A stretch of 64,000 nt of DNA from an uncultured Methanosarcinales archaeon (GCA_964589485.1 CAZPRK010000002.1:49825-113824), one strand, 5' to 3'; counted from the stretch's first letter, positions 2,594 through 32,161 are shown. Notes: a model not told the origin generated them from the letters alone. Made by a program: numbers and translations.

Positions 2594-2646
2594 GAATATG
2601 TTAAGCTTAGGAATATTTTATAAAGGTTTTTGTTTTTCTTTATAGT

Positions 2647-5458: not shown

Positions 5459-6711
5459 ATAGAATTGAATTTATTAAATCTGTATTAGTTAAGTTAGATT
5501 CTAAATCAATTAAATATTGTATATTGAGAAATTATGATTTTCTTCTGCAGAATAGATTTAATGTAAGTAAAAGTGAAAGAAGTATTGATATTGTTGTAGA
5601 AAATATTGATTTGTTTGATAAAGTAATGATTGACTTAGGGTTTCAAAAAAGAAAACCTTCATTTTCATTAAAACATGTATCTTATTTTACATTTAATGGG
5701 TTAGATTTAGTTAGTTTTGATGTACAAATTAACGGAGTTCATTGGAATGATATGTGTTATTTTAATGTATTAGAAAATAGAGTAAAAAAATCTTTTTTTT
5801 ATGTTCCTTCAAATGATGACATGATTGTTATGTTAATATGTCATTCCATACTAGGAAAAAGGTTTTTTAAGCCAGAATATAAACAAATTATTTCTAATAC
5901 TAATTTTGGTCAAGATTACGTTCTAATTCAGTTGACTAAAGTTTTTGGAAATAATGCTAAAAGTATTCTTGATAAAATAAATAAGAATGATTTTAAATTG
6001 AATTTTTATTTACTTTGTTTAAAATTTATATTTAATAAAGTAAGCCATATTAAAATATTTATATTGTTATTTTTTAGATGGATTAAATGGAAGAAATTTT
6101 TATTTTCTAGGCCTTTAATAAGTTTTATTGGTCCGGATGGAAGCGGGAAAAGTTCTGCTACTAGGAATTTAATTAGCTTTTTAGAAAGTGAAAATAGACA
6201 AATATGTTATTTTTATTCAGGAAGAGGAAGAAAAAATATTCTGCCAATAACTAAATTGGGAAGAGTATATAAGAAAAAAGAAAAAAATATGAAACATAAC
6301 TATTTTTTTAAAAATACATTATATATAATAAGTTCATTTATGTTTACATTAGATTTATTGTTAAGATATGTGTTTAAAGTGTTTATTCCAAGGAGATTAG
6401 GGAAAATTGTTATTACGGATAGGTATTGTTCAGATATATATTTAATGAAAAATGTTCCTTTGTTTATGAAAAAGTTTTTTTTAAGTTTATTTCCTAAACC
6501 AAATTTAACTTTTTATTTGTACCAAGATACTTCAGTTTTATTAAAACGAAGACCGAATGAAGATTTAGATAATTTAAACTACCAATTATCAATGTATAAT
6601 GAACTAAGTAATTATATGGATGCAATTAAAATTAAAACTGAGAATTATGATAAAGATAAACTAAATATTTTAACTAAATCGTATTCATATATTTTAAAAG
6701 AATGGTTTTAA
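5455..6711 (+). CDS. Fusion protein: N-terminal putative nucleotidyltransferase-like domain + C-terminal thymidylate-kinase-like P-loop domain
   Basis: C-terminal Walker A FIGPDGSGKSS and IVITDRYCSDIY (the Tmk-like DRY motif). The N-terminal ~200 aa (KYCILRNYDFL...SIDIVV) are homologous to the N-terminus of the ORF at 22144-23439. Confidence 0.5.
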   Translation: MNRIEFIKSVLVKLDSKSIKYCILRNYDFLLQNRFNVSKSERSIDIVVENIDLFDKVMIDLGFQKRKPSFSLKHVSYFTFNGLDLVSFDVQINGVHWNDMCYFNVLENRVKKSFFYVPSNDDMIVMLICHSILGKRFFKPEYKQIISNTNFGQDYVLIQLTKVFGNNAKSILDKINKNDFKLNFYLLCLKFIFNKVSHIKIFILLFFRWIKWKKFLFSRPLISFIGPDGSGKSSATRNLISFLESENRQICYFYSGRGRKNILPITKLGRVYKKKEKNMKHNYFFKNTLYIISSFMFTLDLLLRYVFKVFIPRRLGKIVITDRYCSDIYLMKNVPLFMKKFFLSLFPKPNLTFYLYQDTSVLLKRRPNEDLDNLNYQLSMYNELSNYMDAIKIKTENYDKDKLNILTKSYSYILKEWF

Positions 6712-7823: not shown

Positions 7824-9188
7824 ATGTTTAAATTTATTAAGAAATTATTTGGAAAAAAGAAAGTTTTTGTATTAGGAATAGATGGAGCTCCTCCAGAATT
7901 AGTTTTTGATAAATGGATTGATGAATTGCCTAATATTAAATCATTAATGAAAAATAGTGTATATGGAAAGTTAAAAAGTAGTATTCCTCCTTCTACTATA
8001 GTTGCATGGAGTTCAATGTTAACAGGGAAAGATCCAAGTCATTTTGATGTTTATAGTTACACTACAAAAGATGAACATAATAATTCTGTGTTAACTAACT
8101 CTAAAAATGTAAAAGATAAAAGGATTTGGAAATATATGGATGAAAATAATAAAAAATCAATTTTACTTAACATTCCGTTAACTTATCCTGTAGAAGAAGT
8201 AAATGGTATAATGTTAAGTGGGTTTTTAACTCCAAAATTTAACGAAAAAGCTGTATACCCTTTAGAAATTAAGAATGAAATTTTATCTCAGTTTCATGAT
8301 TATGCTTTTGATGTAGGAGTGGGATTGGCAGGATACAAAAACATTGAATCTAAACAAATGATAACTGCAGTAAATAAAATGACTATGCAACAACTTAAAA
8401 TTACTAAAGATTTTCTTAAAAAAGAATGGGATTTTTTTATGACTGTGTTAATTGGTTCAGATAGAATGCAACATACAATGTGGAGATTTATGGATGAAAA
8501 ACATAGAAGGTATGAAGAAAGTGAATTTAAAGATTCTATTAAAGATTATTATAAATACTTAGATAGGGAGATAGGAGATTTAAAATCTCAGTTAGATGAA
8601 GATACTTATTTTTTTATTTTATCTGATCATGGGTTTGATAGAATGGACGGAAGGTTTAATTTAAATGATTGGTTAATTCAGGAAGGATATCTTGTAATGA
8701 AAGAAGATATACAAAATCAAGAAAAACTTGACTTTAAAAAAGTTAATTGGGATAAAACTAAAGCTTATGCAGTTGGAGCTTACTTTGGAAGAATATATTT
8801 TAATAAAGTAGATATTCAAGATGAATTAATAGAAAAATTAAAACATATTAAAAATGATAGAGGAGAAGAAATGGATACAGTGTTTCATAAACCTAAAGAA
8901 GTTTATTCTGGAGAATATCTAGAAAGTTCACCTGATTTGTATGTGTTTTTTGATAACTTAAGATGGGGAGTTAATAATGATGTAGGGAATGAAGGATTGT
9001 ATTCAGAAAAAACTACTAAAGGGAGTGATGATGCAGGACATGCCCCAAACGGATTATTTTTATTAAATCATAATTCTATAACTGAAGAAAATATTAACGC
9101 GGATATTTTAGATATATTACCTACAATATTAAATATTTATGAAATAAAACATAATTTAGAAGGAAAAAATTTAATCAAGGTATCCTAA
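7824..9188 (+). CDS. Alkaline-phosphatase superfamily protein (type I phosphodiesterase/nucleotide pyrophosphatase family, PF01663-like)
   Basis: N-terminal VLGIDGAPPELV...STIVAWSSMLTGKDPSHFDVY matches the GxDG...TxPxWxSxxTG metal-site motif of PF01663 proteins. No TM helices. Confidence 0.65.
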   Translation: MFKFIKKLFGKKKVFVLGIDGAPPELVFDKWIDELPNIKSLMKNSVYGKLKSSIPPSTIVAWSSMLTGKDPSHFDVYSYTTKDEHNNSVLTNSKNVKDKRIWKYMDENNKKSILLNIPLTYPVEEVNGIMLSGFLTPKFNEKAVYPLEIKNEILSQFHDYAFDVGVGLAGYKNIESKQMITAVNKMTMQQLKITKDFLKKEWDFFMTVLIGSDRMQHTMWRFMDEKHRRYEESEFKDSIKDYYKYLDREIGDLKSQLDEDTYFFILSDHGFDRMDGRFNLNDWLIQEGYLVMKEDIQNQEKLDFKKVNWDKTKAYAVGAYFGRIYFNKVDIQDELIEKLKHIKNDRGEEMDTVFHKPKEVYSGEYLESSPDLYVFFDNLRWGVNNDVGNEGLYSEKTTKGSDDAGHAPNGLFLLNHNSITEENINADILDILPTILNIYEIKHNLEGKNLIKVS

Positions 9189-10490
9189 TTCTTTTAAACG
9201 TAGCTTAACGTCTTCTTCTTCATCTTTAGAATAAAATTGTTTATCTTTATTTTGAATTTTTTCGTAATCTTTTTTAACAATTGTAAAAGAATTTTCAAAA
9301 AGATCTAAAACTTTTCCAGACATATTATTATCTATTGGGTTTTTCATAATTTGAAGAATTGTGGGAGTAACATCTAATACATGTGCATCTATTCTATGAT
9401 CTTTTTTAATTCCTTTACCAAATGCAATAAAAATTCCATCTGGAGAATCTTCGTGTTCACCTGATCTAATACTTTTATCGTTATAATCCTTTTCCTTTAT
9501 TGATGAAATTCCATGATCTGAAACTATAACTAAAGTATGACCTTCTTTAATGAACTTTCCAATTTGTTCATCTAAAAATTTATAATATTTGCTAATTATA
9601 TCTTTATATTTATCAAGTAAAGATAAATCTGCAAATTTAAAATCTTCGGGTTTATGATATTGCCAGAAAATATGTTGAATAGCATCCAATCCTGATAAAT
9701 ATAATGCATTAAATTCAACATTAAACTCAGAACTAATCTCAGAAACAAATAAATCTGACCTGTATGCTTGCGCAAAAAAATTAATTCTCTCATTTTTAAT
9801 AAGTTCTTTGTTTTTAATTTTTTCTTTATCTTCATCATTAAATGAATTAAAAAAAGATGGAATTGAAGAAAGGGAAGAATTAAAAACTGATTCTTTCTTT
9901 TTATCAATTAAGTTACTTAAACTAATTGGATAAAATTCTTCACCATTAGAAATTGATTTTTTATTTTTATAATATGCTTTAGTGGTTTCTATTACTTTTT
10001 CTGAAATTATATATTCATTGATAGGTTTAACTGGCCATGTTGTTAAAAATCCAGTAACTCCACATTTAACATTATTTTCAGATAAAATTTCCCATACAGT
10101 TTTACATTTTCTGAAAGAACTTGTAGTTAAATAATTTCCACCAATTCCAAGTTTTTCAAATAAATTTCCATATTTTAACATTGAGTAAATGTATGCTTTT
10201 TTTAAAAAACGTGAATTAAATTTATTAGATAATCTATTTGGCCAGTCTATTAAAAAGTTAGAAGAAATATCTTTTTTATTTAAAAATAAATTTGTAAAAT
10301 AAGATATTCCTGATTCTTCTGGAGTTCTTCCAGTAATAATAGAGTTCCAAATTGCAGGGCTTTTATATCCTGGAAGGCTTTTCAATGAAGCTGTAGTTCC
10401 TTCATTAATTAGTTTCTTAAAGTTAGGTAAATCTAATGAATTTATAACTTCCCATGATGCTCCATCAATTCCTATAAAAGTTAATTTCAT
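9171..10490 (-). CDS. Alkaline-phosphatase superfamily protein (PF01663-like), paralog of 7824-9188
   Basis: FIGIDGASWEV...SPAIWNSIITGRTPEESG and VIVSDHG motifs. Convergent with and overlapping its paralog. Confidence 0.65.
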   Translation of the reverse strand: MKLTFIGIDGASWEVINSLDLPNFKKLINEGTTASLKSLPGYKSPAIWNSIITGRTPEESGISYFTNLFLNKKDISSNFLIDWPNRLSNKFNSRFLKKAYIYSMLKYGNLFEKLGIGGNYLTTSSFRKCKTVWEILSENNVKCGVTGFLTTWPVKPINEYIISEKVIETTKAYYKNKKSISNGEEFYPISLSNLIDKKKESVFNSSLSSIPSFFNSFNDEDKEKIKNKELIKNERINFFAQAYRSDLFVSEISSEFNVEFNALYLSGLDAIQHIFWQYHKPEDFKFADLSLLDKYKDIISKYYKFLDEQIGKFIKEGHTLVIVSDHGISSIKEKDYNDKSIRSGEHEDSPDGIFIAFGKGIKKDHRIDAHVLDVTPTILQIMKNPIDNNMSGKVLDLFENSFTIVKKDYEKIQNKDKQFYSKDEEEDVKLRLKELGYLD

Positions 10491-13117
10491 TTTAATTTAG
10501 TTGGACTTTTAATTTGCCTATAATTTTGATTTAAATTAGTTATTTCAGAATGTTGTTTCAAAAAAGTAATTGTTTCACTTAATGTACAATTTTTCCCTAG
10601 AGCTTTAAATGTTTCTCTAATAACTTTTAAGTCTTCAGGAGTATCTAGAGTTAACCTAAATTGACCTTTTTCATTTTCATTTGCTTCAAATAAAGCTATT
10701 TTAAACATTGAAGGATCTTTTAAAAACCAAGTCATATATTCTGTATCTTTTGCTTCTTTAACATAAGTTTGAGCTTTTTTAAGACAAGAAACATTAAAAA
10801 TTTCCGCATTAAATCCAATAGGGACATCTTCAACACCAGTATAATCTGCTTTTTCTTTTAAATGGAATTCAATCATTCTATCTATAAATGAAGCATCCAT
10901 TAAAGGATTATCTCCTGTAGTTCTTACGATAATTTCTGCATCTTCAATTTCAACGCATTTTAAAAATCTATCCATGACATCTATTGCTGACCCGCTAAAT
11001 GATTTAACATTTTTTTGAGAAGCAATTTCAAGTAATTCTTTATCCTCATCTAAATCAGAAGTACATAGTATAACTTCTGATAACTTAGATTGTTTCAACC
11101 TTTCTAACATTAACCCTATTGAAGTTTCACCTTCAATTTCAGCTTTAGCTTTCATTGGTAAACGTTTAGATTTTAACCTTACTGGAATTAAAGTAACTAT
11201 TTTTCTTTTAACGTCATTATAATTTATACCTTCATCAAAAGCAATGTCTCTATTTAATTCTCTGTTAATTAAAAGTGAACTTTCACTTGGTTTAACATTT
11301 CCTTCTAATGTTCTTTTGAATGAAATATCACCTGAAGTTAATACGTGGCCTTTCTTTAAATCTTTAGAAGCTACAATATATTTTTTCATTTTTTTTCTAT
11401 ATTCCAAGTCTCCAGAATGTAAATCCATATTATCGTTGCCTAATGTACGTTCAAATTCTCTAATTTTAGTTATAACATTATTTAATTCACTTGGGTTAAG
11501 GCTAGACATATAATCAAACCCTTTCAAACTCCTGTCGTCTGTAACATGTTTTTCTATTAAGTTTGCTCCGAATGCAAAAGCGTTTACTGCAATATCTTTA
11601 GATAGTTCAGTTTCAGCATCAGTATGATCGTGATAACAAACTGGTAAGTTAAACTCTTGTTTTAAATATTTAATTCGGTTTAGATTAACATCTTCAGGAG
11701 TTGTTGGAAAATTTTGTAATCCGTATACTAAAATTAATCCAACTTTATATTTTTCAATAACATTAATAGCATCTCTAATTTCATCAATAGTTGAACCACC
11801 TAAATATAATAAAATTGTTTTTCCTTTCTTTGCTACATGTTCAAGTAAAGTATGATTACTTATGTCGCTTGCATGAATACTATATGCAGCAACATATTTT
11901 TCAGCCAAATTTGCCATATTTTCATCAAAAACATCTGTTAATATATCAACGTCAAAAGTTTTAGCATATTCTAATATTTCATTCCAATCTTCAATTTGAA
12001 TGTTTTTTAAGTCTTTATATCCAGGATGTCTTGTACTACATAGTTTATCTGCATTAAATAATTGAAATTTAATTCCATCTACCTTTGAATGTAAAGCAAT
12101 AATTTGTTTTAATTTCTCTTTATCTCCGCAATGTGAAGAAGCAACTTCAGCAATAACATAACATCTTTTATTTGAAATTTCTTTATTTCCAATAAATGTT
12201 TTTGTTAAGTTATTATAATTATTATAACTATCTTCAATTAACTTAAAATTGTTATGACTGTTAAGGATTTCTAATACACCTGAAGCATTAGGTGCGTATT
12301 TTTCAATTTCTCTTATAACTTGGTTAAAATTAATTAATCCTTCACCAACAACCTTGCCCTCATCTTCACCCTTACAACCAGTTGAATCGGAAACATGAAC
12401 CCATTTAATTCTATTTCCTGCCATTTTAATGTAATTTTTAATATTTTTTAAAGAATAGGGGTTTATTATATCCATTGCAGGAAATGTAATTTCGTTTTGT
12501 TTGTAATATAATTCTGCTAATTTGAAATGACTTATATCTAATACAAATCCATGATTCCCAAGTCTAGAATTAATATCTTCAAAACAAACATCTATAACAT
12601 GATGTTCATCTGATGAAGCACATGCAGGAGGTGAATTTTCAAGACAAACTTCAATATAAGAGTTTTCACAATCTTTTAATATCTTATCGTAAGCTTTTTT
12701 TGATTTAATTAATAATTGTTTTCTTAGTTCAGTGATATCTTGTAGTTTATTTGTTTTATAACCTAAATGAACAATTAAAATAACTTCTTTTCTATGGAAG
12801 TTACTAAAAGTTTTAATAGAATTAACCATGTTATTATATAATTCTAAATCTTCATCTTTATATTCTTCAAATAAAACATTTTGAATAATGTTATCTACTG
12901 TATGGAATGCAATTTTTTCAATTTCATTATCTTGAATAAATTGTCTTAATTCTAATAACTTATTTAGAAAATCTTTATCTAAATCTGATTTTAATAGATG
13001 TATTTCTAGTATTTTGTCTCCTTTAAATTTATTAAAGTATTCTTTATAATTTGCTAAATCACTAACTAGACCTATTTTCATTTTCAACCCATTCAAATGT
13101 TTTTTTAATTCCTTCAT
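10487..13117 (-). CDS. Trifunctional nonulosonic-acid enzyme: N-terminal TIM-barrel (sugar-phosphate isomerase/epimerase-like) + NeuB-type nonulosonate synthase with SAF domain + C-terminal CMP-nonulosonate cytidylyltransferase (NeuA-like)
   Basis: 876 aa. The middle region (CYVIAEVASSHCGDKEKLKQII...) is NeuB-like, followed by a SAF-like segment (LVASKDLKKGHVLTSGDISFKR). The C-terminus (IVTLIPVRLKSKRLPMKA...IVRTTGDNPL) is an acylneuraminate cytidylyltransferase fold. An alternative start at the internal Met would place it at 13081. Confidence 0.8.
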   Translation of the reverse strand: MKELKKHLNGLKMKIGLVSDLANYKEYFNKFKGDKILEIHLLKSDLDKDFLNKLLELRQFIQDNEIEKIAFHTVDNIIQNVLFEEYKDEDLELYNNMVNSIKTFSNFHRKEVILIVHLGYKTNKLQDITELRKQLLIKSKKAYDKILKDCENSYIEVCLENSPPACASSDEHHVIDVCFEDINSRLGNHGFVLDISHFKLAELYYKQNEITFPAMDIINPYSLKNIKNYIKMAGNRIKWVHVSDSTGCKGEDEGKVVGEGLINFNQVIREIEKYAPNASGVLEILNSHNNFKLIEDSYNNYNNLTKTFIGNKEISNKRCYVIAEVASSHCGDKEKLKQIIALHSKVDGIKFQLFNADKLCSTRHPGYKDLKNIQIEDWNEILEYAKTFDVDILTDVFDENMANLAEKYVAAYSIHASDISNHTLLEHVAKKGKTILLYLGGSTIDEIRDAINVIEKYKVGLILVYGLQNFPTTPEDVNLNRIKYLKQEFNLPVCYHDHTDAETELSKDIAVNAFAFGANLIEKHVTDDRSLKGFDYMSSLNPSELNNVITKIREFERTLGNDNMDLHSGDLEYRKKMKKYIVASKDLKKGHVLTSGDISFKRTLEGNVKPSESSLLINRELNRDIAFDEGINYNDVKRKIVTLIPVRLKSKRLPMKAKAEIEGETSIGLMLERLKQSKLSEVILCTSDLDEDKELLEIASQKNVKSFSGSAIDVMDRFLKCVEIEDAEIIVRTTGDNPLMDASFIDRMIEFHLKEKADYTGVEDVPIGFNAEIFNVSCLKKAQTYVKEAKDTEYMTWFLKDPSMFKIALFEANENEKGQFRLTLDTPEDLKVIRETFKALGKNCTLSETITFLKQHSEITNLNQNYRQIKSPTKLK

Positions 13118-13970
13118 TTAAAGATGTTAAATTATTCCATCCTAAATTTTTAATTTTTTTACAATCTAATACACTTCTAAATATATCTCCTTTTCTTGGA
13201 TTTTTAAATTCAGAAGTTATTTCTTTTCCGCTAATTTCTTTATATACTTGAATTAAATCAAGTAATGATGTTTCCAGTCCAGTTGAAACGTTTAATGAAT
13301 CATTATCCCAATCAATTGCCATAATATTAGCATTTGCTACATCTTCAACATAAACAAAGTCTCTTGTTTGTTTACCGTCACCAAATATTATTGGGTTTTC
13401 ATTTTTACTAACTTTATTTGCAAAAATTGCAACAACTCCACCTTCGCCAAAAGGATCTTGCCTTGGACCGTATACATTTGCATAGTTTAATGAAACATAT
13501 TTTAAATTAAACAATTTAGAATAAATTTCTAAATATTTTTGAAAAGTTAATTTAGATAATCCATAAGGAACTAAAGGGTTTTTAGGATGTTTTTCATCAA
13601 CAGGATAATATTCAGCTTCTCCAATTGTTGCACCACCACTATTTCCATAAATAAATTTAGAATTATATTTTCTTGCTAATTCTAATAATTTTAATCCTCC
13701 TATAATATTCACTTGGGCATCAAATAAAGGATCATTTATACTTTTATTTACATCTACTTGGGCAGCTTGATGTATAATTACATCTAAAGGAAATAATTTT
13801 TCAATTTCATCTGAAGAAATATCCATGTTAAAAAAAGTTGCTTTGGAGTTAACATTACTTAATTTCCCACTAGATAAGTTATCAATTACAATAACTTCAT
13901 GTTGATCAACTAGTTTGTCAACAATATGACTTCCAATAAACCCTGCTCCACCTGTAACTAATATTTTCAT
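13062..13970 (-). CDS. NAD-dependent sugar-nucleotide epimerase/dehydratase (SDR family)
   Basis: MKILVTGGAGFIGSH Rossmann N-terminus; 302 aa. Confidence 0.85.
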   Translation of the reverse strand: MKILVTGGAGFIGSHIVDKLVDQHEVIVIDNLSSGKLSNVNSKATFFNMDISSDEIEKLFPLDVIIHQAAQVDVNKSINDPLFDAQVNIIGGLKLLELARKYNSKFIYGNSGGATIGEAEYYPVDEKHPKNPLVPYGLSKLTFQKYLEIYSKLFNLKYVSLNYANVYGPRQDPFGEGGVVAIFANKVSKNENPIIFGDGKQTRDFVYVEDVANANIMAIDWDNDSLNVSTGLETSLLDLIQVYKEISGKEITSEFKNPRKGDIFRSVLDCKKIKNLGWNNLTSLNEGIKKTFEWVENENRSS

Positions 13971-15691
13971 TTTACTAATATAAAATACTCCTTTCCGATT
14001 TTTTCAATTTTTTCAATATTTAAATTTGCATTTTTAAATAATATTTTTAATGACTTTTTTGAAAATAAAAATAAATGTGTACTCGCAAACCATTCTGAAG
14101 TTTCGTGAGGGACACGAATAAATATTCTTCCGTTTTCGTTTAATAGTGTTTTTAATCTATGTAATGCCTTTAATGGATCAGGTAAGTGTTCTAAAATAGC
14201 AGAAAAGTTAATTAAATCAAATTTTTCTTCAGTTTTAAAGTCATCAATGAATATATTTTCAACCTTTAAGTTATATGTTTTTCTTGCAAATTCCGCATAA
14301 TGCGTTGTTGGTTCAATTGCAGTAACTTTCCAACCTTTCTTTTGCATTAGCCAAGAAAATTTACCTTCGCCTGCACCAATGTCAAGTAATTTTCCTTTTT
14401 CTAAGTTTTCTAAGAATTTGAAAGTATTTTCATGTCTTTTAGAAAAGGGGAGTCTAAATACTATATGTTGTTTAAAACTAATTTTATCTCTAAACTTATT
14501 TTTATATAATTCTTCTAATTTTTTCCAATTTTGTGGAAAAACAAATCTAACATTACATTCATCACAAGTGTAGTATGAAACTTTTTCTTTTGTATACCTA
14601 TCTTCGGTAATTGTATGAAATAATTTAGTTTTATTTGATTTACAAATTTGACATTCTGAGAATAAATCTTCTTCTGAAATTAATGAATCTTTTAATATAT
14701 TTTTATTTACAACCTTGCCAATAACTTGATTTAATTTATTTGGTTTTAATCCTGTTCCTGGTCTTTTTATTACTAACATCTCTTCAGTTATTATTGAATC
14801 TTTATTGATATCAACATTAGCAATAATACTTCTTCTTGCCATTTCTCTTGTTTCTTTTTCTTTTTCAGTTAAATGTTGAGTTCCATCTCCTAATGCTTTT
14901 TCCATTAACCTTATTTCATCACACATTTGTTTCATTTCACTTGGGTTCATGGATAAATGATGATCTACACCTTCTAAATTTTTATCTATAGTGAAATGTT
15001 TTTCTATAACTTTTGCGCCTAATGTAACTGCTGCAACTGAAGAAAAAGGACCAGGTGTATGATCTGAAAATCCAATAGAAAACGGAAATTTTCTTTGTAA
15101 TGTTTGAATGAATTTTAAGTTACTATCTTCTATTTTTGTAGGATATCCTGAAATGCAATGAAGTAGAACAATTTGATTATTACCTTCATTTTTAATTGCA
15201 TTAACTGCTTCTTCTATTTCTTCAAATGTAGCCATACCTGTAGACATTATAATTGGTTTATTTTTCTTTGCAATATGCTTTATTAACGGGATGTGTGTAA
15301 TGTCAGCTGATCCTAATTTGAAACAAGCTCCATCTAATTTTTCTAACATGTCTGCATTTTCTTCATCCCATACTGATGCAAAAAATTCAAGTCCAAGAGA
15401 ATTACAATATTTTTTTAATTCTAAATACTGACCATGTGTTAATTCATATTTTTTATACATTTCTTGTTGATATTCAGGAAGGTGTCCATCGTTTCCGTAA
15501 GTTTTAGCATCTTTGGTAACTAATTTTTCAGCAGTGAAAATTTGAAATTTCGCAGCATCGCATCCACATTCTGCTGCAGATTTAATTATTTCTTTAGCTA
15601 ACTCAATGTCTCCGTTATGATTCATGCCTATTTCTGCTATAATGAATGTACTTTTTCCAATTTCTTTTTTTCCAATGTTCATTCCTTCCAC
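13967..15691 (-). CDS. NeuB-type nonulosonic acid synthase fused to a zinc-ribbon and a class I SAM-dependent methyltransferase
   Basis: N-terminal FIIAEIGMNHNGDIELAKEIIKSAAECGCDAAKFQ is a NeuB signature. The C-terminal ~230 aa carry CxxC...CxxC and the SAM motif LLDIGAGEGKFS. Confidence 0.8.
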   Translation of the reverse strand: MEGMNIGKKEIGKSTFIIAEIGMNHNGDIELAKEIIKSAAECGCDAAKFQIFTAEKLVTKDAKTYGNDGHLPEYQQEMYKKYELTHGQYLELKKYCNSLGLEFFASVWDEENADMLEKLDGACFKLGSADITHIPLIKHIAKKNKPIIMSTGMATFEEIEEAVNAIKNEGNNQIVLLHCISGYPTKIEDSNLKFIQTLQRKFPFSIGFSDHTPGPFSSVAAVTLGAKVIEKHFTIDKNLEGVDHHLSMNPSEMKQMCDEIRLMEKALGDGTQHLTEKEKETREMARRSIIANVDINKDSIITEEMLVIKRPGTGLKPNKLNQVIGKVVNKNILKDSLISEEDLFSECQICKSNKTKLFHTITEDRYTKEKVSYYTCDECNVRFVFPQNWKKLEELYKNKFRDKISFKQHIVFRLPFSKRHENTFKFLENLEKGKLLDIGAGEGKFSWLMQKKGWKVTAIEPTTHYAEFARKTYNLKVENIFIDDFKTEEKFDLINFSAILEHLPDPLKALHRLKTLLNENGRIFIRVPHETSEWFASTHLFLFSKKSLKILFKNANLNIEKIEKIGKEYFILVK

Positions 15692-17247
15692 CCATTAGTT
15701 ATAGGCATTCGTCTTCCTGTTCCGAAAGCTCTATGAGTAATTCTAATTCCAGTAGCTGCTTGTTGTCTTTTATATTCATTTCTATCTACTAAATTAATTA
15801 TTTTTCTTACGATTTCTTTATCATAGCCATTATTAACAATTTCATCAAAACCTTTATCATTTTCAATGTAACTTTTTAATATTGGATCTAAAATATTATA
15901 TTCTGGGAGAGAGTCACTATCTTTTTGGTCTTCTCTAAGTTCAGCACTAGGTTCCTTCGTAATAATTTCATTTGGAATAATTTCTTTTTCTTTATTGATA
16001 TGTTTACAAATTGCATATACTTTTGTTTTGAATACATCTGAAATAACTGATAATCCACCAGACATGTCTCCATATAATGTTGCATATCCAACTGAAGTTT
16101 CAGATTTATTTCCTGTTGCAAGAACTAAATATCCAAATTTATTAGATAATGCCATTAATAAATTTCCTCTAATTCTTGCTTGGATATTTTCTTCAGCAAC
16201 ATTAAATTGTGTATTTTGAAATTGTTTATTTAAACTTTCAATATAACTATCAAAAATATTTTTTATACTTATTACGTCAAATTCAATTCCTAAATTATTG
16301 GCTAATTTTTCTGAATCATCTACACTTCCGCTACTAGAAAATTTACTTGGCATACTTATTCCTATTACATTTTCTTTTCCTAATGCTTCGACTGCTAATG
16401 CGCAAGTTAAGGCAGAATCTATTCCTCCACTTAATCCTAAAACTACCTTAGAAAAACCATTTTTATGAACGTAATCTTTTAATCCAAGAACTAAAGCTTT
16501 TTTGATTTCTTCTTCTTCAAAATCTTTATTAAATTCTATCTCTTTTTCAAAATCATTTATAATTTTAAAACTTTCTTCAAAACTATTTGCTTGAAAAACT
16601 ATTTTCCCTTCTTTAGAAAAAACATAACTTTTTCCATCAAACACTAAATCGTCTTGCCCTCCTACTAAGTTAACATAAACTACAGGGACATTATGTTTTT
16701 TTGCTTTTTCTGACAAAATAGTTTCCCTTAATTTATATTTTCCATGATTAAATGGAGATGCAGAAATATTTATTATTAATTCAGCTCCTTGGTTACATTG
16801 ATCTTGACAAACTTTATCAATCCAAATATCTTCACAAATATTAATTCCTATTTTTTTCCCAAAAATTTCTACAATGTTACTTTTTTCACCTGGCGTAAAG
16901 TATCTTTTTTCATCAAAAACATCATAATTTGGAAGTGATTTTTTATGTTCTATATGGATTATTTTACCATCGTGGATTAAAGCTGCAGCATTGTATAATT
17001 TATCTTCAATTTTATCAACAAATCCAATGATTGCATATTTTTTGCAATGAGAAGCAATTTCATTTAATGCTTTTAAATTAGTTTCAATAAATTTATTTTT
17101 AACAAGTAAATCTTTTGGAGGGTATCCAGTTAATGCTAATTCAGGAAAAACAACTAAATCTGTTTTATCTAAATAACTTAATATTTTTTCTTTATTTTTT
17201 TCAATGTTTCCCACTATGGGGTTAATTTGAGCTATGCCTATATTCAT
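15679..17247 (-). CDS. Glutamine-dependent NAD+ synthetase family protein (N-terminal nitrilase/CN-hydrolase + C-terminal NadE PP-loop). May act as a PseA/WbpG-like amidotransferase in this sugar context
   Basis: 522 aa. The PP-loop motif is GLSGGIDSAL. Two-domain architecture. Embedded between NeuB and UDP-sugar dehydrogenase genes. Confidence 0.75.
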   Translation of the reverse strand: MNIGIAQINPIVGNIEKNKEKILSYLDKTDLVVFPELALTGYPPKDLLVKNKFIETNLKALNEIASHCKKYAIIGFVDKIEDKLYNAAALIHDGKIIHIEHKKSLPNYDVFDEKRYFTPGEKSNIVEIFGKKIGINICEDIWIDKVCQDQCNQGAELIINISASPFNHGKYKLRETILSEKAKKHNVPVVYVNLVGGQDDLVFDGKSYVFSKEGKIVFQANSFEESFKIINDFEKEIEFNKDFEEEEIKKALVLGLKDYVHKNGFSKVVLGLSGGIDSALTCALAVEALGKENVIGISMPSKFSSSGSVDDSEKLANNLGIEFDVISIKNIFDSYIESLNKQFQNTQFNVAEENIQARIRGNLLMALSNKFGYLVLATGNKSETSVGYATLYGDMSGGLSVISDVFKTKVYAICKHINKEKEIIPNEIITKEPSAELREDQKDSDSLPEYNILDPILKSYIENDKGFDEIVNNGYDKEIVRKIINLVDRNEYKRQQAATGIRITHRAFGTGRRMPITNGWKE

Positions 17248-18581
17248 TCTAACCAGTGTGCATCTCCAGCTTCATGGTATTCAACTGTTTCTGGAAATTC
17301 AATTTCTTTCCAAGTACCCATGTTATCTAATATTAATTTTACATCTTTTGTTTTTTCTAAAATTTCAGAATAAGTAGTGTAAGTATATTGCATGTGCGGG
17401 GCAACAAGTAAAATTGTATCGCTTCCTTCCAATCCGTCAGGGAATGAAACACTTTCACATCCTGTAATACTTTTTATTTCTTCATCAGAATAATAAGGAT
17501 CATTTACTTTTACTTCAATTCCTTGTTCTTTTAATTTTTTTGCAATCGGAATTGCTGGACTTAATGTGTGTACTTTTAAATCTCCTGTATATGCAATTCC
17601 TAATAAAGTAACTTTTTTAACTCCTCTTTTTATTAAACTATTTACAACTGTTTCAGGTTGCATAAAATCAGTTTTAAGTGATTCTTTAATTAAAGTTAAT
17701 TTTTCTGGATATTTTGCTCCCTCTAGAACATATTGTGGAGCTAATGGGATACAATATCCACCTGTTCCGAAACTTGGATGGAATGTTCCGATGTTCCATT
17801 TAGTTCCTGCCATTTTTAAAACTTCAGTCATATTCATGTCAGGGTAAGCTAAACTTAATTGGTTTGCAAAAGTAATGTCTAATTGCCTATATGCGTTTTC
17901 TATACTTTTAACAATTGCGGCATGTTTATGATCTTTTGCTTCTAAAATTGTATCGCAAATTATGTTTAAAACTTCTGCCATTAATTTAGTTGTTTTAGTT
18001 GTGGTTCCGCCAACAACCCTTGGAAGAGTTTTTAATGTTTTATCTGATTCTGTGAACCAATCTCTTCTTGGTGCAATTCCTAACAAAATATCTACTCCTA
18101 CCTTTAAACCATTACTTTCAAGTAAAGGTATGACTATATTATCTGTTACTGTAGGAGTTAATGTACTTTCAACAATAATTAAAGGAGGATGATCTAAGTT
18201 TAATTTTTTTATATTTGTAATTTTAAGAATAACGTCTTTAAGAATATCATGGAACGGTTTTCCGTTCATTTCAGTAGGGATTGTAATTAAATGTACAGCT
18301 ACATCTTCATGGATTAATTCTTCCCAGTTAGTTGTTGCAATCATACGTTTATCTTTTGCTAATTTTCGTACATCAAAACCAAGCCAAAATTCAAAATTCG
18401 GTATAGTGACTCTTCCATGATTAACATCATCTACTCTTTCTAAATTAAGATCTGTTCCAACACATTTTACTCCTGCTTTTGCAAAATATGAAATAGATGA
18501 GAAACCAATGTAACCTAATCCCCAAACACCAATTTTTTTATTTCCGTTTTTTAATTTTTCTTTTAAATTCATATGATTCAC
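17244..18581 (-). CDS. UDP-glucose/GDP-mannose dehydrogenase family enzyme (nucleotide-sugar 6-dehydrogenase, WecC/WbpA-like)
   Basis: N-terminal KKIGVWGLGYIGFSS (GxGYxG NAD-binding motif); 445 aa. Confidence 0.85.
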   Translation of the reverse strand: MNHMNLKEKLKNGNKKIGVWGLGYIGFSSISYFAKAGVKCVGTDLNLERVDDVNHGRVTIPNFEFWLGFDVRKLAKDKRMIATTNWEELIHEDVAVHLITIPTEMNGKPFHDILKDVILKITNIKKLNLDHPPLIIVESTLTPTVTDNIVIPLLESNGLKVGVDILLGIAPRRDWFTESDKTLKTLPRVVGGTTTKTTKLMAEVLNIICDTILEAKDHKHAAIVKSIENAYRQLDITFANQLSLAYPDMNMTEVLKMAGTKWNIGTFHPSFGTGGYCIPLAPQYVLEGAKYPEKLTLIKESLKTDFMQPETVVNSLIKRGVKKVTLLGIAYTGDLKVHTLSPAIPIAKKLKEQGIEVKVNDPYYSDEEIKSITGCESVSFPDGLEGSDTILLVAPHMQYTYTTYSEILEKTKDVKLILDNMGTWKEIEFPETVEYHEAGDAHWLE

Positions 18582-18953: not shown

Positions 18954-20474
18954 ATGAAACATAATCTTGATTATTATTTTAATTATGAGAATATTTTAGA
19001 TCATTTCGCTAAAGATTGGAATACTAAAGATGTTAATGGGTTTGTTTTTGATAAAGAATTTCAAATAAATGACGTTCCAGTTTCTTGGTTTTTAGATCGA
19101 TTTTTTGCAGTGAATAATATTCCTTCTACATTTAACATTTTAAATATTTTACATGAAAATTATATGCTAAAAAAAGAATTAAATCCTATTAAAAAAATAT
19201 ATTACAAAACATTATCTAAAACTTTATCTAAATTTTTATTGTTTAATGAAAAACGAAAAATTAATTTAAGAAATAAGAAGTTAGAAGAAAATAAAATTTT
19301 ATTTTTAACTTATACTAATCACATTCCTAATTTTAAAGATGATTCTTCAATATTTAGACTAGGTAAATTAATTTCGTTAACTGAAGATAATTTAGTTGTT
19401 GTTTGTGATACAATGAGTAATGTAAAAACATCTAAATTTAAAGAAATAGATCATATGATTTATGATTTTGTAGATGAAGAATCAATGAAAATAGCAGATA
19501 AAATTTCAACTGAACTTAATACAAAGTGGAACACAATAAATAAAAAAGAAATATTTGGAGATTTATATAGTTACATTGAACATGCATTAAATTTTTTTAT
19601 GTCAAAAGAATTTTTATACCTTATTGTTTTATATTATAACGTTGTAAATAAATTATTAATAAATCAAAAAGCAAGCGTATTATCCTCTCATAATAGTTTA
19701 TATGAAAGATGTATTATGATGGCTTCTCATAAATTAAATAAACCTTGTTATATAATTCAACATGGAACTGGAGCAGGAACTGCAAATCCTAATGCAACAG
19801 AAAGTACTAAATTTTTAGTTTTTTCTGACATGTATAAAAAAAGGTTAATGAGTTTTGGTATAACTGAAAAAAATATTGAAATTGTAGGGCCTATAATATT
19901 TGATGAAATAAATTCCTTTATTGGTAAGTCTAAGCCAAGTAATCAAATATTGTTAGTAACTGAACCTTTTGTTGAAAGGAATATGTTGGATGAAGGTTTT
20001 TACTTTGAAAGTATTAAAAAAATATTGTTAAGCATTCCAATAAACATTCAAGTTAAGATTAAGATGCATCCTAGTGAAAAGTTATATGATAAATATGTTA
20101 AATTAATTAAAGAATGTAGTTTGAGTAATGTTGAAATTATTAATCAAGTTGGAGTAAATGTGTTATATGAAGCAATAAATAATTCTAATATTATAATTGA
20201 ATTTGGGTCTACTGTTGCAATAGAAGCTATGATTTTAGATAAACCAGTAATAACAATAAATTTAAGTTCTGGGACAGGAAATTATGAAATAATTAAGAAA
20301 AGTAAAGCAACAATGGAAATTGAAATAGATAATTTAACTATATCAATTAAAGAGTTAATGACTGATGATAGTTTAGTTGAAAAAAGAAAAAAAGCAGTTG
20401 AATCAATTTGTGGAAAAATTGACGGAAATGCATCTAAAAGAGCTATTGATATTATTACCAAGAAAACTTTATAA
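18954..20474 (+). CDS. CDP-glycerol glycerophosphotransferase-like protein (TagF/TagB family, GT-B)
   Basis: The C-terminal segment NSNIIIEFGSTVAIEAMILDKPVITIN resembles the TagF LITDYSSxxFDxxxxxKPxI motif; 506 aa. Confidence 0.5.
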   Translation: MKHNLDYYFNYENILDHFAKDWNTKDVNGFVFDKEFQINDVPVSWFLDRFFAVNNIPSTFNILNILHENYMLKKELNPIKKIYYKTLSKTLSKFLLFNEKRKINLRNKKLEENKILFLTYTNHIPNFKDDSSIFRLGKLISLTEDNLVVVCDTMSNVKTSKFKEIDHMIYDFVDEESMKIADKISTELNTKWNTINKKEIFGDLYSYIEHALNFFMSKEFLYLIVLYYNVVNKLLINQKASVLSSHNSLYERCIMMASHKLNKPCYIIQHGTGAGTANPNATESTKFLVFSDMYKKRLMSFGITEKNIEIVGPIIFDEINSFIGKSKPSNQILLVTEPFVERNMLDEGFYFESIKKILLSIPINIQVKIKMHPSEKLYDKYVKLIKECSLSNVEIINQVGVNVLYEAINNSNIIIEFGSTVAIEAMILDKPVITINLSSGTGNYEIIKKSKATMEIEIDNLTISIKELMTDDSLVEKRKKAVESICGKIDGNASKRAIDIITKKTL

Positions 20475-21157: not shown

Positions 21158-22152
21158 AAATATATTTTAATCTTGATTTAGATCCAAGAAAATTTGAAGG
21201 TCGAACTAAACTTTCAGTAGGATTAAGGGATTTTTTAATGCAAAATGGTCATGACATAACTAATAATCCAAATGAAGCTGATATTTTACATTTTCATAGT
21301 AGTGGGGTATTTGAATCTTATCGTGCATATAAATTAAAGAAACAGTTAAATAAACCTTGTATTTATACTTTATATTCAACAGCTGAAACTCATCCTATTA
21401 ATCATATTATTAATTTTTATGATCAAAGAAAATATTTTTCAAAAACTGCAACTAATGGATTATTAAGTTATTCTGCAATAATTCCTTTAAAATTTAGAAG
21501 TATTTTTTTAAAAAAGTTAGATAAATTAGTTGTTCCGTTAAATTATATGAAACAAAAATTGTTTTCAAATACAGAAGTAATTTCTTTTGGGGTTGATGTG
21601 AATAAATTCATTCCTAGTAAAAATGAAAATAAAAAGGTTAAGGTAGCTTATTTTGGTCATCCTAGTACATTTAAAGGAATGAATGATTTTATTGAAGCAT
21701 CTAAACATTTTTCAGAAGAAGTTGACATTGAATTATATCCAAGTGTTGTAAATGAAAAATTAAAAGCATTAGTTGCAACTAACCCAAGAATTAAGTTAAT
21801 GGGTTATGTGGAGGACATAGTGGCAGTTTACAATTCAGTTGACATTGTTGTTTTGCCATATAGAATGTCATTAGGAACAGTAGCTAATCCGTTAGTGTTG
21901 TTGGAAGCAATGTCTTCAGGGAAATGCATAATAACAACTAATTTGAAAGAATATACTGAGATAGTACAAGATTCTTGTTATTTAGTTGATCCTTTTTCAC
22001 CAAAACAAATTGCAGATGCTGTAAATAGTTTAGCAAAAGATGAAAGTTTAAGAAAAAAGTTAGGTGAAAATGCAAGACAAAGAATTGTAAACAGTTATGA
22101 TGAAAATGTTATGTTTAAGAAATATTTACAGTTATATGAAAGTTTAAAGTAA
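21154..22152 (+). CDS. GT4 (group 1) glycosyltransferase
   Basis: ANPLVLLEAMSSGKCIITT matches the GT4 E-x7-E / EAM motif; 332 aa. Confidence 0.75.
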   Translation: MKIYFNLDLDPRKFEGRTKLSVGLRDFLMQNGHDITNNPNEADILHFHSSGVFESYRAYKLKKQLNKPCIYTLYSTAETHPINHIINFYDQRKYFSKTATNGLLSYSAIIPLKFRSIFLKKLDKLVVPLNYMKQKLFSNTEVISFGVDVNKFIPSKNENKKVKVAYFGHPSTFKGMNDFIEASKHFSEEVDIELYPSVVNEKLKALVATNPRIKLMGYVEDIVAVYNSVDIVVLPYRMSLGTVANPLVLLEAMSSGKCIITTNLKEYTEIVQDSCYLVDPFSPKQIADAVNSLAKDESLRKKLGENARQRIVNSYDENVMFKKYLQLYESLK

Positions 22153-32154: not shown

Positions 32155-32161
32155 TTTTATT

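Follow-up and report, generated by a model that had tools for sequence, protein, structure and literature searches.

A conserved archaeal surface-sugar operon with genuine enzyme fusions and two different sialic-acid-type synthases

The window, a 64,000-nucleotide stretch of DNA from an uncultured host of low GC content (about 26%) that is probably DPANN/Woesearchaeota-like, has an archaeal context with genes for AglB/STT3 and aIF5B and an intron-bearing tRNA. Six genes on the minus strand (18581 to 9171) form a core operon within an N-glycosylation island (Table 1). Four of them are tightly coupled and encode an NAD synthetase, a NeuB-family synthase (NeuB-A) joined to a SAF domain, a zinc ribbon and a methyltransferase, a short-chain dehydrogenase/reductase (SDR), and a TIM barrel joined to a second synthase homologue (NeuB-B), a SAF domain and a cytidylyltransferase. 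The open reading frames lie on the minus strand exactly where an earlier, sequence-only reading had placed them, and its view of the locus as a nonulosonate-type glycan cluster holds. That reading made no mention of the SDR gene, the dehydrogenase gene or the ATGA overlaps described below.

Table 1. Genes and domains of the operon and of the adjacent divergent gene (window coordinates).
Feature	Coordinates	Strand	Evidence
PF01663 phosphodiesterase/nucleotide-pyrophosphatase-family protein, last operon gene	9171..10490	-	Phosphodiest 76.8 bits
TIM::NeuB-B::SAF::cytidylyltransferase gene, 876 aa	10487..13117	-	Pfam domains; probable start M13, nt 13081
SpsF-like cytidylyltransferase domain, aa 638-876	10490..11206	-	CTP_transf_3 77.5 bits, cut-off 22.6
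NeuB-B + SAF, aa 309-637, divergent D110/Q184-type NeuB paralogue	11207..12193	-	NeuB (PF03102) 149 bits; TIGR03569 187.8 bits
N-terminal metallo TIM barrel, aa 13-300, xylose-isomerase/endonuclease IV superfamily	12218..13081	-	AP_endonuc_2 (PF01261)
GalE-like SDR, predicted 4-epimerase, 302 aa, between the two NeuB genes	13062..13970	-	Epimerase 179 bits
NeuB-A::zinc-ribbon::methyltransferase gene, 574 aa from GTG, 571 aa from ATG 15682	13967..15691	-	Pfam NeuB, SAF, Methyltransf_23
Class I SAM methyltransferase domain, aa 418-574	13970..14440	-	Methyltransf_23 76.8 bits
Zinc ribbon, CxxC at aa 347 and 376	14537..14653	-	Two CxxC pairs
NeuB-A + SAF domain, aa 15-343, predicted canonical nonulosonate synthase	14663..15649	-	Profile, active-site and tree evidence
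Predicted glutamine-dependent NAD+ synthetase NadE, 522 aa	15679..17247	-	CN_hydrolase 109 bits, NAD_synthase 269.5 bits
Nucleotide-sugar 6-dehydrogenase, 445 aa, first operon gene	17244..18581	-	Three UDPG_MGDP_dh Pfam domains
GT-B-like protein, 506 aa, divergently transcribed	18954..20474	+	C-terminal half of Epimerase_2, 33 bits

The dehydrogenase passed the cut-off of the NCBIfam NDP-sugDHase model (222 against 189.8 bits), and its best PDB matches were Cap5O and a UDP-ManNAc(A) dehydrogenase. Its stop codon shares an ATGA overlap with the start of the NadE gene. Such start/stop overlaps are present at most gene junctions of the operon, including that between the triple-fusion gene and the last gene; the last gene recurs as a neighbour in the sister loci L012 and L013. 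The PF01663 protein of the operon had no match in PDB or NCBIfam searches. The divergently transcribed GT-B-like protein, which is conserved in L009, L012 and L013, scored below cut-off with the BFO_1060 GT domain (63 bits) and TIGR04396 (47.5 bits) models and is a candidate CMP-ulosonate glycosyltransferase. The module of dehydrogenase, NadE, NeuB-A, SDR and TIM/NeuB-B/cytidylyltransferase recurs in L005, L007, L012 and L013; in L005 its flanks are unlike those in the window.

As proposed beforehand, the locus has two different NeuB homologues, and each of the two fusions is genuine and in frame. The identical 876-aa protein occurs on five contigs (four places shown) that come from separate assemblies at ENA and JGI, and several independent assemblies yield the identical 571-aa NeuB-methyltransferase product. 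Alignments with six orthologues of the triple fusion (50-54% identity) span all three domains with unbroken junctions, and about 200 invariant columns are spread over all domains. The notion that the fusions arose by frameshift, mis-assembly or pseudogene decay is effectively refuted by these identical products, by orthologues of approx. 52% identity that align continuously through the junctions, and by a uniform GC content. The sequence-only reading had itself raised an assembly artefact or a NeuB pseudo-domain as possible objections. The former is gone; as to the latter, NeuB-B retains its catalytic core, while several residues lining the PEP site are replaced. The fusion of a synthase with its activating enzyme, previously thought unusual, turned out to be frequent: about 100 of the best 150 cluster representatives combined NeuB with CTP_transf_3, in both orders, a count subject to bias, since both domains were part of the query. 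NeuB-cytidylyltransferase fusions are common, with more than 100 clusters, and the rare parts are only the TIM addition and the methyltransferase fusion. The locus forms the centre of a conserved operon for surface sugars, in which the enzyme fusions are genuine and the two sialic-acid-type synthases differ from each other.

In the 574-aa protein, whose likely true start is the internal ATG, Pfam detected NeuB at residues 35-271 (304.1 bits), SAF (42.1 bits) and Methyltransf_23 at residues 426-560. NeuB-A just missed the cut-offs of TIGR03569 (381.2 against 399.65 bits) and of the PseI model TIGR03586 (316.4 against 340.25 bits), and a substrate class is not assignable. It keeps H215, H236, E25, E234, K53, Q55, K129, S132, S154, Y186, S213, D247 and R314 (NmNeuB numbering throughout). 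The sole change among the NmNeuB active-site positions is E134D, which is typical of archaeal and eukaryotic enzymes (PMC8208679). Neighbour-joining trees placed NeuB-A inside the canonical clade of NmNeuB, CjPseI, BsSpsE and Leptospira 6ncs in 50 of 50 bootstrap replicates, and its best PDB match was B. subtilis SpsE (227.7 bits). Judged by these residues and trees, NeuB-A is a predicted canonical, catalytically complete PEP-dependent nonulosonate synthase.

The zinc ribbon and SAM methyltransferase noted in the sequence-only reading are both present, as indicated by the CxxC pairs and the Methyltransf_23 match. Together they align end to end, at 47% identity, with separate 235-aa methyltransferase genes of L012 and L013, and the ribbon cysteines are conserved in these free-standing orthologues. 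A zinc-ribbon SAM methyltransferase with a gene of its own in the sister loci has here been acquired by the C-terminus of NeuB-A. In other lineages, the fusion partner of NeuB-A-type synthases is an acetyltransferase, an SDR or another kind of methyltransferase, and P0280 represents an independent methyltransferase-NeuB-A fusion in the opposite order.

The 876-aa protein contains Pfam NeuB (residues 341-562, 149 bits), SAF (580-637, 28.5 bits) and CTP_transf_3 (642-835) domains. NeuB-B keeps E25, K53, Q55, H215, E234, H236, D247 and R314 and carries the changes T110D, K129S, S132A, S154Y, N184Q, Y186F and S213H, which are the same in five of the six orthologues. E134D, seen in both NeuBs, has been linked to phosphorylated substrates (PMC8208679). 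All 50 bootstrap replicates placed NeuB-B outside the canonical clade, which excluded every D/E110-type domain. The retained core residues are kept in approx. 121-135 of 136 NeuB-B-type domains, which argues for an active enzyme. By its sequence features, NeuB-B belongs to a large NeuB-family branch with an acidic residue at 110, Gln at 184 and no Ser at 213, usually fused to an SpsF-like cytidylyltransferase; we found no characterised member of this branch. Among solved structures, the best matches were 6ncs for NeuB-B and 6oew (92.7 bits) for the cytidylyltransferase domain, presumably both Leptospira proteins. The N-terminal basic CTP-binding motif PVRLKSKRLPMK of the cytidylyltransferase is, by inspection, invariant across the triple-fusion orthologues. 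Among the NCBIfam models only KdsB-type ones matched this domain (33-52 bits against cut-offs of 155-281), and the NeuA/PseF/KdsB equivalogs were not reached.

Residues K129, S132, S154, N184 and S213 line the catalytic site of NmNeuB (PMC6795526). Throughout the NeuB-B branch, position 213 is mostly Ala and 154 is variable, with an invariant metal and acid/base core. According to work of Gunawan et al. from 2005, K129, S132, S154, N184 and S213 of NmNeuB reportedly bind PEP; with these residues replaced, NeuB-B may not use PEP at all. It could then be a domain-swapped dimer partner of NeuB-A or catalyse another metal-dependent ulosonate reaction, for example a reversible pyruvate aldol step resetting C4 stereochemistry, and pass the product to the fused cytidylyltransferase. 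The replacements of PEP-site-lining residues (K129S, S132A, S154Y, S213H, N184Q and T110D) and the branch-wide pattern fit this idea. So do the fusion of A and B in one chain in L009 and L022 and the retention of the partner-supplied R314 in both NeuBs. Single chains of 959-964 aa with the order A-SAF-B-SAF-cytidylyltransferase are encoded beside PseH/PseG-like genes. We nevertheless regard a non-synthase role as rather unlikely. Many NeuB-B-cytidylyltransferase proteins came up with no sign of a canonical NeuB alongside them, in a comparison that covered the proteins alone. Moreover, phosphate could still be bound by the His, Gln and Tyr that replace the original residues, the triple-fusion orthologues carry His415 and Ser417, both invariant, beside the lost K129 and S132, and such an activity would be without precedent in the NeuB fold.

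The N-terminal domain of the triple fusion is a xylose-isomerase-like TIM barrel, as suggested earlier: AP_endonuc_2 matched residues 93-286 with 34.1 bits (cut-off 31.1), and the fold is that of a (beta/alpha)8 barrel. It had no sequence-level match to any PDB chain, and its best structural matches were mostly sugar epimerases and isomerases. The barrel carries a conserved His/Asp/Glu set, and the invariant H72, H117, E160, D194, H197, H241, E253 (or D252) and E283 line up, by inspection, with endonuclease IV ligands, for which the nine metal ligands of E. coli Nfo (H69, H109, E145, D179, H182, H216, D229, H231 and E261) served as the reference. The equivalent of H231 varies among the orthologues and is Lys in the window. 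The hhalign comparison with an Nfo sequence of endonuclease IV gave a non-significant E value of 0.097. The barrel resembles both MJ1311 (PDB 3wqo) and endonuclease IV, yet sequence identity is only 14-20%; on the strength of this resemblance it may be a phosphoesterase. The extra N-terminal metallo TIM barrel is an addition in this lineage.

NadE had been compared with the PseA/WbpG amidotransferases, an assignment that the data do not support. It scored 733.8 bits with the NAD+ synthetase equivalog PRK13981 (cut-off 479) and 503.7 bits with PDB 5kha, and shares 62-64% identity with flavobacterial housekeeping NadE genes located beside gldB and gldC. Of 128 columns invariant in five reference NadEs, two from housekeeping-type gene contexts and three crystallised enzymes, 118 are kept, with no fixed substitution. 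The PseA/WbuX/WbpG family (TIGR03573) has ATP-dependent amidation chemistry in common with NadE, but NadE did not match this model. True members occur in L012 and L013, which carry the same NadE and, immediately upstream of the module, WbuX-family amidotransferases together with HisH/HisF. The L012 proteins scored 351 and 302.5 bits with TIGR03573 (cut-off 203.2) and gave no tblastn match in the window. By these sequence criteria, NadE looks like an ordinary NAD+ synthetase, and a PP-loop amidotransferase beside sugar genes is not automatically a sugar amidotransferase.

A mere hitchhiker would not explain the conserved operon place of NadE, which is shared by L005, L007, L008, L009, L012 and L013. 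One conceivable reason is a uronamide branch composed of dehydrogenase, NadE and GalE-like SDR, in which NadE, possibly besides making NAD+, would adenylate the C6 carboxylate of a UDP-HexNAc uronic acid and amidate it with glutamine-derived ammonia, in parallel to WbpO/WbpP/WbpS of Pseudomonas O6. Carboxylate adenylation followed by amidation is indeed NadE chemistry. The adjacency of these three genes, with ATGA overlaps at the junctions, is the most conserved core of these loci and persists even in L008, whose displayed 8 kb per side contain no NeuB; furthermore, the NadEs of the module share only 61-65% identity among themselves, indicating that the linkage is old. Against such a branch, NadE has no fixed residue difference from housekeeping-context NadEs and shows equal similarity to NadEs from unrelated contexts, flavobacterial as well as other archaeal ones, and known uronamide synthases are AsnB-like and not known to be NadE-like. 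We consider the uronamide branch improbable and retain NadE as a probable NAD+ synthetase.

The GalE-like SDR, the only SDR in the window, remained below the cut-offs of both the GalE (169.6 bits) and the LegB (109 bits, cut-off 475) models. Its best relatives are GalE 4-epimerases such as the UDP-glucose 4-epimerase 4zrm (284.6 bits), and we rejected it as a LegB/PseB-type 4,6-dehydratase. The window contains no 4,6-dehydratase, and the scanned ORFs included no convincing hydrolysing 2-epimerase (NeuC/LegG-type) and no PseG-type hydrolase. Since the SDR is GalE-like, a legionaminic or pseudaminic acid product, as in the sequence-only reading, is not established. The DegT aminotransferase and formyltransferase genes (65-2593), enlisted there for decorating the nonulosonate, lie 8-16 kb away with a Dol-P-sugar GT2 and a GT-C in an ArnB/C/A/T gene set and so need not act on this sugar. 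A model in which every gene contributes to a single legionaminic or pseudaminic acid bearing N-formyl, N-methyl and amidino groups, and in which the NadE homologue plays the part of PseA/WbpG in making the acetamidino group, can point to the LegC-like aminotransferase (374.8 bits) and formyltransferase in the same island, to N-formyl legionaminic acid in Halorubrum (PMC6137143), to the methyltransferase physically fused to NeuB-A and to the operon coupling of NadE. However, this NadE is indistinguishable from housekeeping NadE, sister loci hold it alongside true WbuX proteins with HisH/HisF whereas the window has no WbuX homologue, the dehydratase and hydrolysing epimerase are missing from the window, and the DegT and formyltransferase genes belong to the distant ArnB/C/A/T-like block. 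Such a single product is even less probable than the uronamide branch.

The best explanation overall, which we favour by a modest margin over doubt, is that the operon directs the synthesis of a nonulosonic (sialic-acid-like) sugar and its activation with CMP. The three-domain chain would carry out consecutive steps. The TIM barrel would prepare the substrate or trim the product, most likely as a metal-dependent phosphoesterase, in line with the proposal for the Leptospira synthase fusion discussed below, or alternatively as a keto-sugar isomerase/epimerase; NeuB-B would condense the sugar with a three-carbon donor, and the cytidylyltransferase domain would provide the adjacent GT-B-like transferase with its CMP-sugar. 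NeuB-A and NeuB-B probably share a pathway or complex, given that both are encoded as one polypeptide in related archaea. The dehydrogenase and the GalE-like SDR would supply a hexuronic acid for the same glycan, and NadE would be an ordinary NAD+ synthetase that serves the cell and whose gene is carried within the operon.

As of a 2021 phylogenetic survey (PMC8208679), the characterised Neu5Ac synthases did not include an archaeal one, and we found no literature linking DPANN archaea with nonulosonic acids. A tentative extension, unlikely as it stands, is that DPANN-type archaea use a new CMP-nonulosonate route. A deep-branching D/E110, Q184 NeuB class, always with a fused cytidylyltransferase and here also with an Endo IV/MJ1311-like TIM phosphoesterase, would form a heteromer with canonical NeuB and constitute an 'animal-like' phosphorylated pathway built from unrelated parts. 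More boldly still, the operon-embedded NadE may also amidate the sugar carboxylate. Several features offer biochemical handles: a methyltransferase, an acetyltransferase and an SDR each occur naturally fused to the canonical synthase, a large NeuB branch with a remodelled donor pocket travels with a cytidylyltransferase, and the adapter step that is missing could come from a metallo TIM barrel. Working out these enzymes would improve the annotation of thousands of metagenomic "NeuB" genes and could show how ultra-small archaea decorate host-attachment surfaces.

Among known systems, LegI/LegF of C. jejuni and SpsE/SpsF of B. subtilis likewise consist of a NeuB TIM barrel with SAF followed by CTP_transf_3, the window domain being of the short SpsF/6oew type. 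In contrast to both, the window cytidylyltransferase is covalently fused to the divergent second NeuB, not to the canonical one, and equivalents of LegB, LegG and LegH are absent from the window. The Leptospira interrogans nonulosonate synthase carries a C-terminal endonuclease-like domain, described as homologous to phosphodiester-cleaving endonucleases, for which a phosphatase 'adapter' role was proposed (Ricaldi et al. 2012; PMC3438082). Both systems join an extra domain to a NeuB-family synthase, C-terminally there and N-terminally in the window. Unlike NeuB-B, the Leptospira 6ncs NeuB has a canonical active-site signature. The vertebrate GNE/NANS/NANP/CMAS pathway resembles the locus in the fusion of adapter enzymes to core enzymes and in an Asp at the NmNeuB E134 position (PMC8208679). 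It proceeds through a phosphorylated substrate and a phosphatase step; its phosphatase is a HAD enzyme, not a TIM barrel, and a phosphorylated sugar in the pathway of the window is only proposed. The legionaminic acid pathway of Halorubrum sp. PV6 (Zaretsky et al. 2018; PMC6137143) differs in having separate LegB, LegC, LegF, LegG and LegI, a single synthase and no fusions, NadE or TIM domain. Both are archaeal nonulosonate clusters for an N-glycan and include a LegC-like aminotransferase together with a putative N-formyltransferase.

The nonulosonate genes are organised as six co-directional genes on the minus strand, running from 18581 down to 9171. ATGA overlaps were found at four of the five junctions, and the fifth is a 20-nt overlap if the triple fusion encoded by gene 5 begins at M13, as its orthologues do. 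All domains named in the sequence-only reading of this DNA were recovered in their places and its observation of fused synthases was confirmed; the SDR and dehydrogenase genes of the operon were absent from that description. Assembly artefacts as the source of the fusions were ruled out by identical proteins in independent assemblies and by gap-free orthologues. Five contigs of independent ENA and JGI assemblies encode the identical 876-aa triple fusion (four places shown); identical copies of the 571-aa NeuB-methyltransferase lie on several contigs of independent assemblies. Six triple-fusion orthologues (50-54% identity) could be aligned through all three domains; about 200 columns were invariant, and the junctions were free of gaps.

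Features of the window and of compared loci (L numbers)
Feature	Sequence	Position	Strand
DegT	window	65-1150	
DegT, GT2, formyltransferase, PMT_2 block	window	65-3948	
418-aa protein, dTMP-kinase-like domain	window	5455-6711	+
PF01663 protein (phosphodiesterase / nucleotide pyrophosphatase family), convergent with gene 6	window	7824-9188	+
Gene 6: PF01663 protein (same family)	window	9171-10490	-
Gene 5: TIM barrel-NeuB-SAF-cytidylyltransferase	window	10487-13117	-
Gene 4: SDR	window	13062-13970	-
Gene 3: NeuB-SAF-zinc ribbon-methyltransferase	window	13967-15691	-
Gene 2: NadE	window	15679-17247	-
Gene 1: nucleotide-sugar 6-dehydrogenase	window	17244-18581	-
506-aa Epimerase_2-like protein	window	18954-20474	
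431-aa protein, dTMP-kinase-like domain	window	22144-23439	-
tRNA	window	27662-27810	+
Run of very large ORFs	window	27863-43502	+
AglB/STT3-Rotamase fusion	window	45393-48386	+
Pyruvate-kinase barrel-PUA_2-ATP-sulfurylase-APS kinase	window	50897-53641	+
HisH/HisF-like and further genes upstream of dehydrogenase	L012	2679-6637	
HisH/HisF-like and further genes upstream of dehydrogenase	L013	3767-7057	
HisH/HisF-like and further genes upstream of dehydrogenase	L007	86-3354	
DUF386-GNAT fusion	L022	12880-13806	
FrhB/FdhB-type protein	L005	12757-14690	
FrhB/FdhB-type protein	L022	14829-16157	

The NeuB-SAF parts of gene 3 (NeuB-A) and gene 5 (NeuB-B, aa 309-637) were mapped on N. meningitidis NeuB (NmNeuB), with residue numbers taken from the 1xuu alignment. 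NeuB-A keeps all active-site residues (E25, K53, Q55, K129, S132, D134, S154, Y186, S213, H215, E234, H236, D247 and R314). NeuB-B retains the two metal histidines together with E25, K53, Q55, E234, D247 and R314, and carries the changes T110D, K129S, S132A, S154Y, N184Q, Y186F and S213H, which are the same in five of six orthologues. Gunawan et al. 2005 is said to have assigned specific PEP-binding roles to these site residues of NmNeuB. The lining of the NmNeuB catalytic site includes T110, K129, N184, Y186 and S213 (PMC6795526). Comparison of 287 NeuB domains separated two classes, a canonical one with S/T110, K129, S132, S154 and S213 (median protein length 347 aa) and a D/E110-Q184 class, in which position 213 is mostly Ala and position 154 is variable (median 588 aa). 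Among 136 representatives of the latter, about 121-135 keep the metal and acid/base core, a pattern that points to a working enzyme whose donor pocket has changed and speaks against a pseudo-domain in decay. When neighbour-joining trees were bootstrapped, the canonical class stood in 50 of 50 replicates as a clade of its own, holding NmNeuB, C. jejuni PseI, B. subtilis SpsE, the Leptospira 6ncs enzyme and NeuB-A; NeuB-B fell outside everything characterised. With Q184 as its only criterion the B class did not form a clean clade, as the canonical protein P0303 also has Q184; redefinition by position 110 plus 213 gave support in 50 of 50 bootstraps. HMM scores agreed with the residue sets and the tree positions: NeuB-A reached 381 bits with TIGR03569 and 316 bits with the PseI model, each just below cut-off, and NeuB-B 188 and 142 bits. 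The claim of two distinct NeuB homologues thus holds, and the two are predicted to be different enzymes.

The triple fusion served as query in an exhaustive HMMER search of 1.84 billion cluster representatives. NeuB-SAF-CTP_transf_3 proteins of approximately 580-600 aa made up about 100 of the best 150 matches, a ranking biased toward fusions by a query that holds both NeuB and cytidylyltransferase domains. Further matches showed the reverse order (cytidylyltransferase-NeuB-SAF) or an extra GT2 or GT28 domain. Even with this bias, the fusion of synthase and activating enzyme, which had been called unusual, is a populated architecture. The rare part of the triple fusion is its N-terminal TIM barrel. 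A word-based search returned only seven full-length homologues (P0001-P0007) and the truncated P0008; L012 and L013 contain two more homologues. In a scan of 185,579 species-representative genomes with a seven-sequence alignment of the TIM domain, a single genome matched, CAZCXW01 (labelled an uncultured Methanosarcinales MAG), identical to L007. A few free-standing TIM homologues of about 320 aa were also found. Even rarer is the fusion of NeuB to a methyltransferase, found only in the cluster of the window itself and in P0280, which has a different methyltransferase placed N-terminally. The methyltransferase domain and ribbon of the window share 47% identity end to end with separate 235-aa genes in L012 and L013; a gene conserved in these loci has therefore been cleanly fused to the synthase. 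Orthologues of NeuB-A occur free-standing (P0281, P0282), fused to a hexapeptide acyltransferase (P0283, P0284) or fused to an acyltransferase and an SDR (P0286).

Both synthase types also occur in one chain. Proteins of 959-964 aa (P0130, P0305-P0309 and a protein of L009, from Candidatus Woesearchaeota CG10) have the order NeuB-A-like, SAF, NeuB-B, SAF, cytidylyltransferase. The single-chain genes of L009 and L022 adjoin GNAT (PseH-like) and Glyco_tran_28_C (PseG-like) genes. NeuB is a domain-swapped dimer in which R314 comes from the SAF domain of the partner; as R314 is kept in both paralogues, a heteromer of NeuB-A and NeuB-B is plausible. In L022, a DUF386 (YhcH-like)-GNAT acetyltransferase fusion lies directly after the single-chain gene and before the PseG-like gene. 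FrhB/FdhB-type (F420-related) proteins adjoin synthase-cytidylyltransferase genes in the unrelated loci L005 and L022, accompanied in L005 by a PterinBD-DUF4346 protein.

The AlphaFold model of the TIM domain is a (beta/alpha)8 barrel (pLDDT 79.7, pTM 0.84), and a family-profile search of PDB sequences gave no real match. Residues H40, H72, D75, H117, E160, H173, D176, D194, H197, H241, E253 and E283 are invariant, free-standing homologues included. By inspection, H72, H117, E160, D194, H197, H241, D252/E253 and E283 match the Endo IV zinc ligands H69, H109, E145, D179, H182, H216, D229 and E261. An hhalign comparison with an approximate Nfo sequence placed the block from E160 to E253 in the same register at a non-significant E of 0.097, a hint rather than a proper test. 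In the structure paper on MJ1311, the nine Endo IV ligands are reportedly conserved and the DNA groove is absent. A Leptospira nonulosonate synthase carries an endonuclease-like domain, which was proposed to act as a phosphatase in a pathway with phosphorylated intermediates like that of animals (Ricaldi et al. 2012, PMC3438082). Furthermore, an E134D change has been linked to possible use of ManNAc-6-P (PMC8208679). This change is present in both NeuB-A and NeuB-B. Because of the Endo IV-like residues, the MJ1311 and Leptospira precedents and the E134D link, we favour a metal-dependent phosphoesterase, at about an even chance, over a keto-sugar epimerase or isomerase, which we regard as possible and less probable. 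As no convincing NeuC, LegG or PseG homologue was found in the window, a non-orthologous enzyme would have to liberate or prepare the hexose. The TIM barrel is one candidate, and the two PF01663 proteins are others. One PF01663 gene is ATGA-coupled to the triple fusion, and conserved counterparts of the pair occur in L012 and L013; neither protein matched an NCBIfam model, and a PDB search with the 439-aa one, the only one of the pair searched, gave no match.

NadE appears by every sequence test to be an orthodox glutamine-dependent NAD+ synthetase. It scored 733.8 bits with the PRK13981 equivalog (cut-off 479) and 503.7 bits against PDB 5kha. It is 57% identical to an archaeal NadE amid central-metabolism genes in L014 and 62-64% identical to the NadE of the Flavobacteria-like contigs L010, L020 and L021, located between gldB/gldC and dnaG or mutS. 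The flavobacterial enzymes are thus as close as other archaeal copies, a hint of inter-domain nadE transfer. The operon NadEs of seven loci share 61-65% identity and are no closer mutually than to the flavobacterial enzymes. Five references (two from housekeeping-type contexts and three crystallised enzymes) had 128 invariant columns; 118 of these were also invariant in all seven operon NadEs, and none of the ten exceptions was a fixed difference. In L007, L012 and L013, HisH/HisF-like genes lie directly upstream of the dehydrogenase-NadE pair together with one or two others. Two of these others in L012 reached 351 and 302.5 bits when scored with the model for WbuX N-acetyl-sugar amidotransferases (cut-off 203.2). 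This L012 set had no match in the window, where an acetamidino-forming set is absent. A role of NadE as a PseA analogue was therefore rejected on its scores, the lack of fixed differences and the separate WbuX genes of L012. The earlier interpretation is supported in part: the nonulosonate-type locus with two NeuBs stands, and the PseA/WbpG reading of NadE lacks support.

The operon position of NadE is conserved: the window shares the order dehydrogenase-NadE-(NeuB-A)-SDR with L005, L007, L008, L009, L012 and L013; the flanks of L005 are unlike those of the window, and L008 has no NeuB within the 8 kb shown either side of dehydrogenase-NadE-SDR. A metagenome scan with NadE as single protein gave only five loci. 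In Pseudomonas O6, UDP-GalNAcA-amide synthesis follows the logic of a dehydrogenase, a 4-epimerase and a glutamine amidotransferase. The parallel gene set here and its recurrence across seven loci, including L008, would fit moonlighting of NadE in sugar amidation alongside the dehydrogenase and SDR, to which we assign a low probability.

The SDR scored 284.6 bits against 4zrm and is best assigned as a short GalE-type 4-epimerase; a LegB/PseB-type 4,6-dehydratase was rejected (LegB model 109 bits, cut-off 475). Together with the dehydrogenase, closest to Cap5O and UDP-ManNAc dehydrogenases, it suggests a hexuronic acid branch. The 506-aa protein was rejected as a NeuC/LegG hydrolysing epimerase, as its Epimerase_2 match is weak and confined to the C-terminal half and glycosyltransferase models match better (weak matches to BFO_1060 and TIGR04396). 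It is more plausibly a CMP-ulosonate transferase; a PDB search with it found nothing. The 418- and 431-aa proteins end in a dTMP-kinase-like P-loop domain and could phosphorylate sugars or glycans; their sister-locus homologues, encoded on either side of the Epimerase_2-like gene, carry NTP_transf_5 as an additional domain at the N-terminus.

The window DNA, with an average GC of about 26%, is archaeal; an AglB/STT3 oligosaccharyltransferase, aIF5B, archaeal-type ATPases and an intron-bearing tRNA are encoded in it. The tRNA was detected by Rfam (35.1 bits) and, as it spans 149 nt, carries a long intron; an ARAGORN scan of the window reported no tRNA, this one included. The 997-aa AglB/STT3 protein ends in a parvulin-type PPIase (Rotamase, aa 894-986) and so unites N-glycosylation with protein folding, which is uncommon in one chain. 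A 914-aa chain for PAPS synthesis, with an unexpected pyruvate-kinase barrel, suggests sulfated glycans in the island. The large ORFs (1075, 801, 1444 and 746 aa) mostly lack Pfam matches, and one has five PKD repeats; their products probably lie at the cell surface and are glycosylated.

At the start of the window, a LegC-like DegT (374.8 bits, cut-off 420) overlaps a Dol-P-hexose-transferase-like GT2, followed by a formyltransferase and a PMT_2 GT-C. The block corresponds to the ArnB/ArnC/ArnA-N/ArnT gene set, which suggests a lipid-linked 4-formamido sugar branch; this product and an N-formyl nonulosonate are equally likely. Judged from the window, the sugar may or may not be 9-deoxy and may carry methyl, formyl or amide groups. 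By its genes, the locus is one for nonulosonate biosynthesis and activation, a type of system already known. Of interest in it are a pair of synthase paralogues of different branches, the rare addition of a metallo TIM barrel, a canonical synthase that has captured tailoring enzymes in a lineage-specific manner, and the conserved NadE in the operon.
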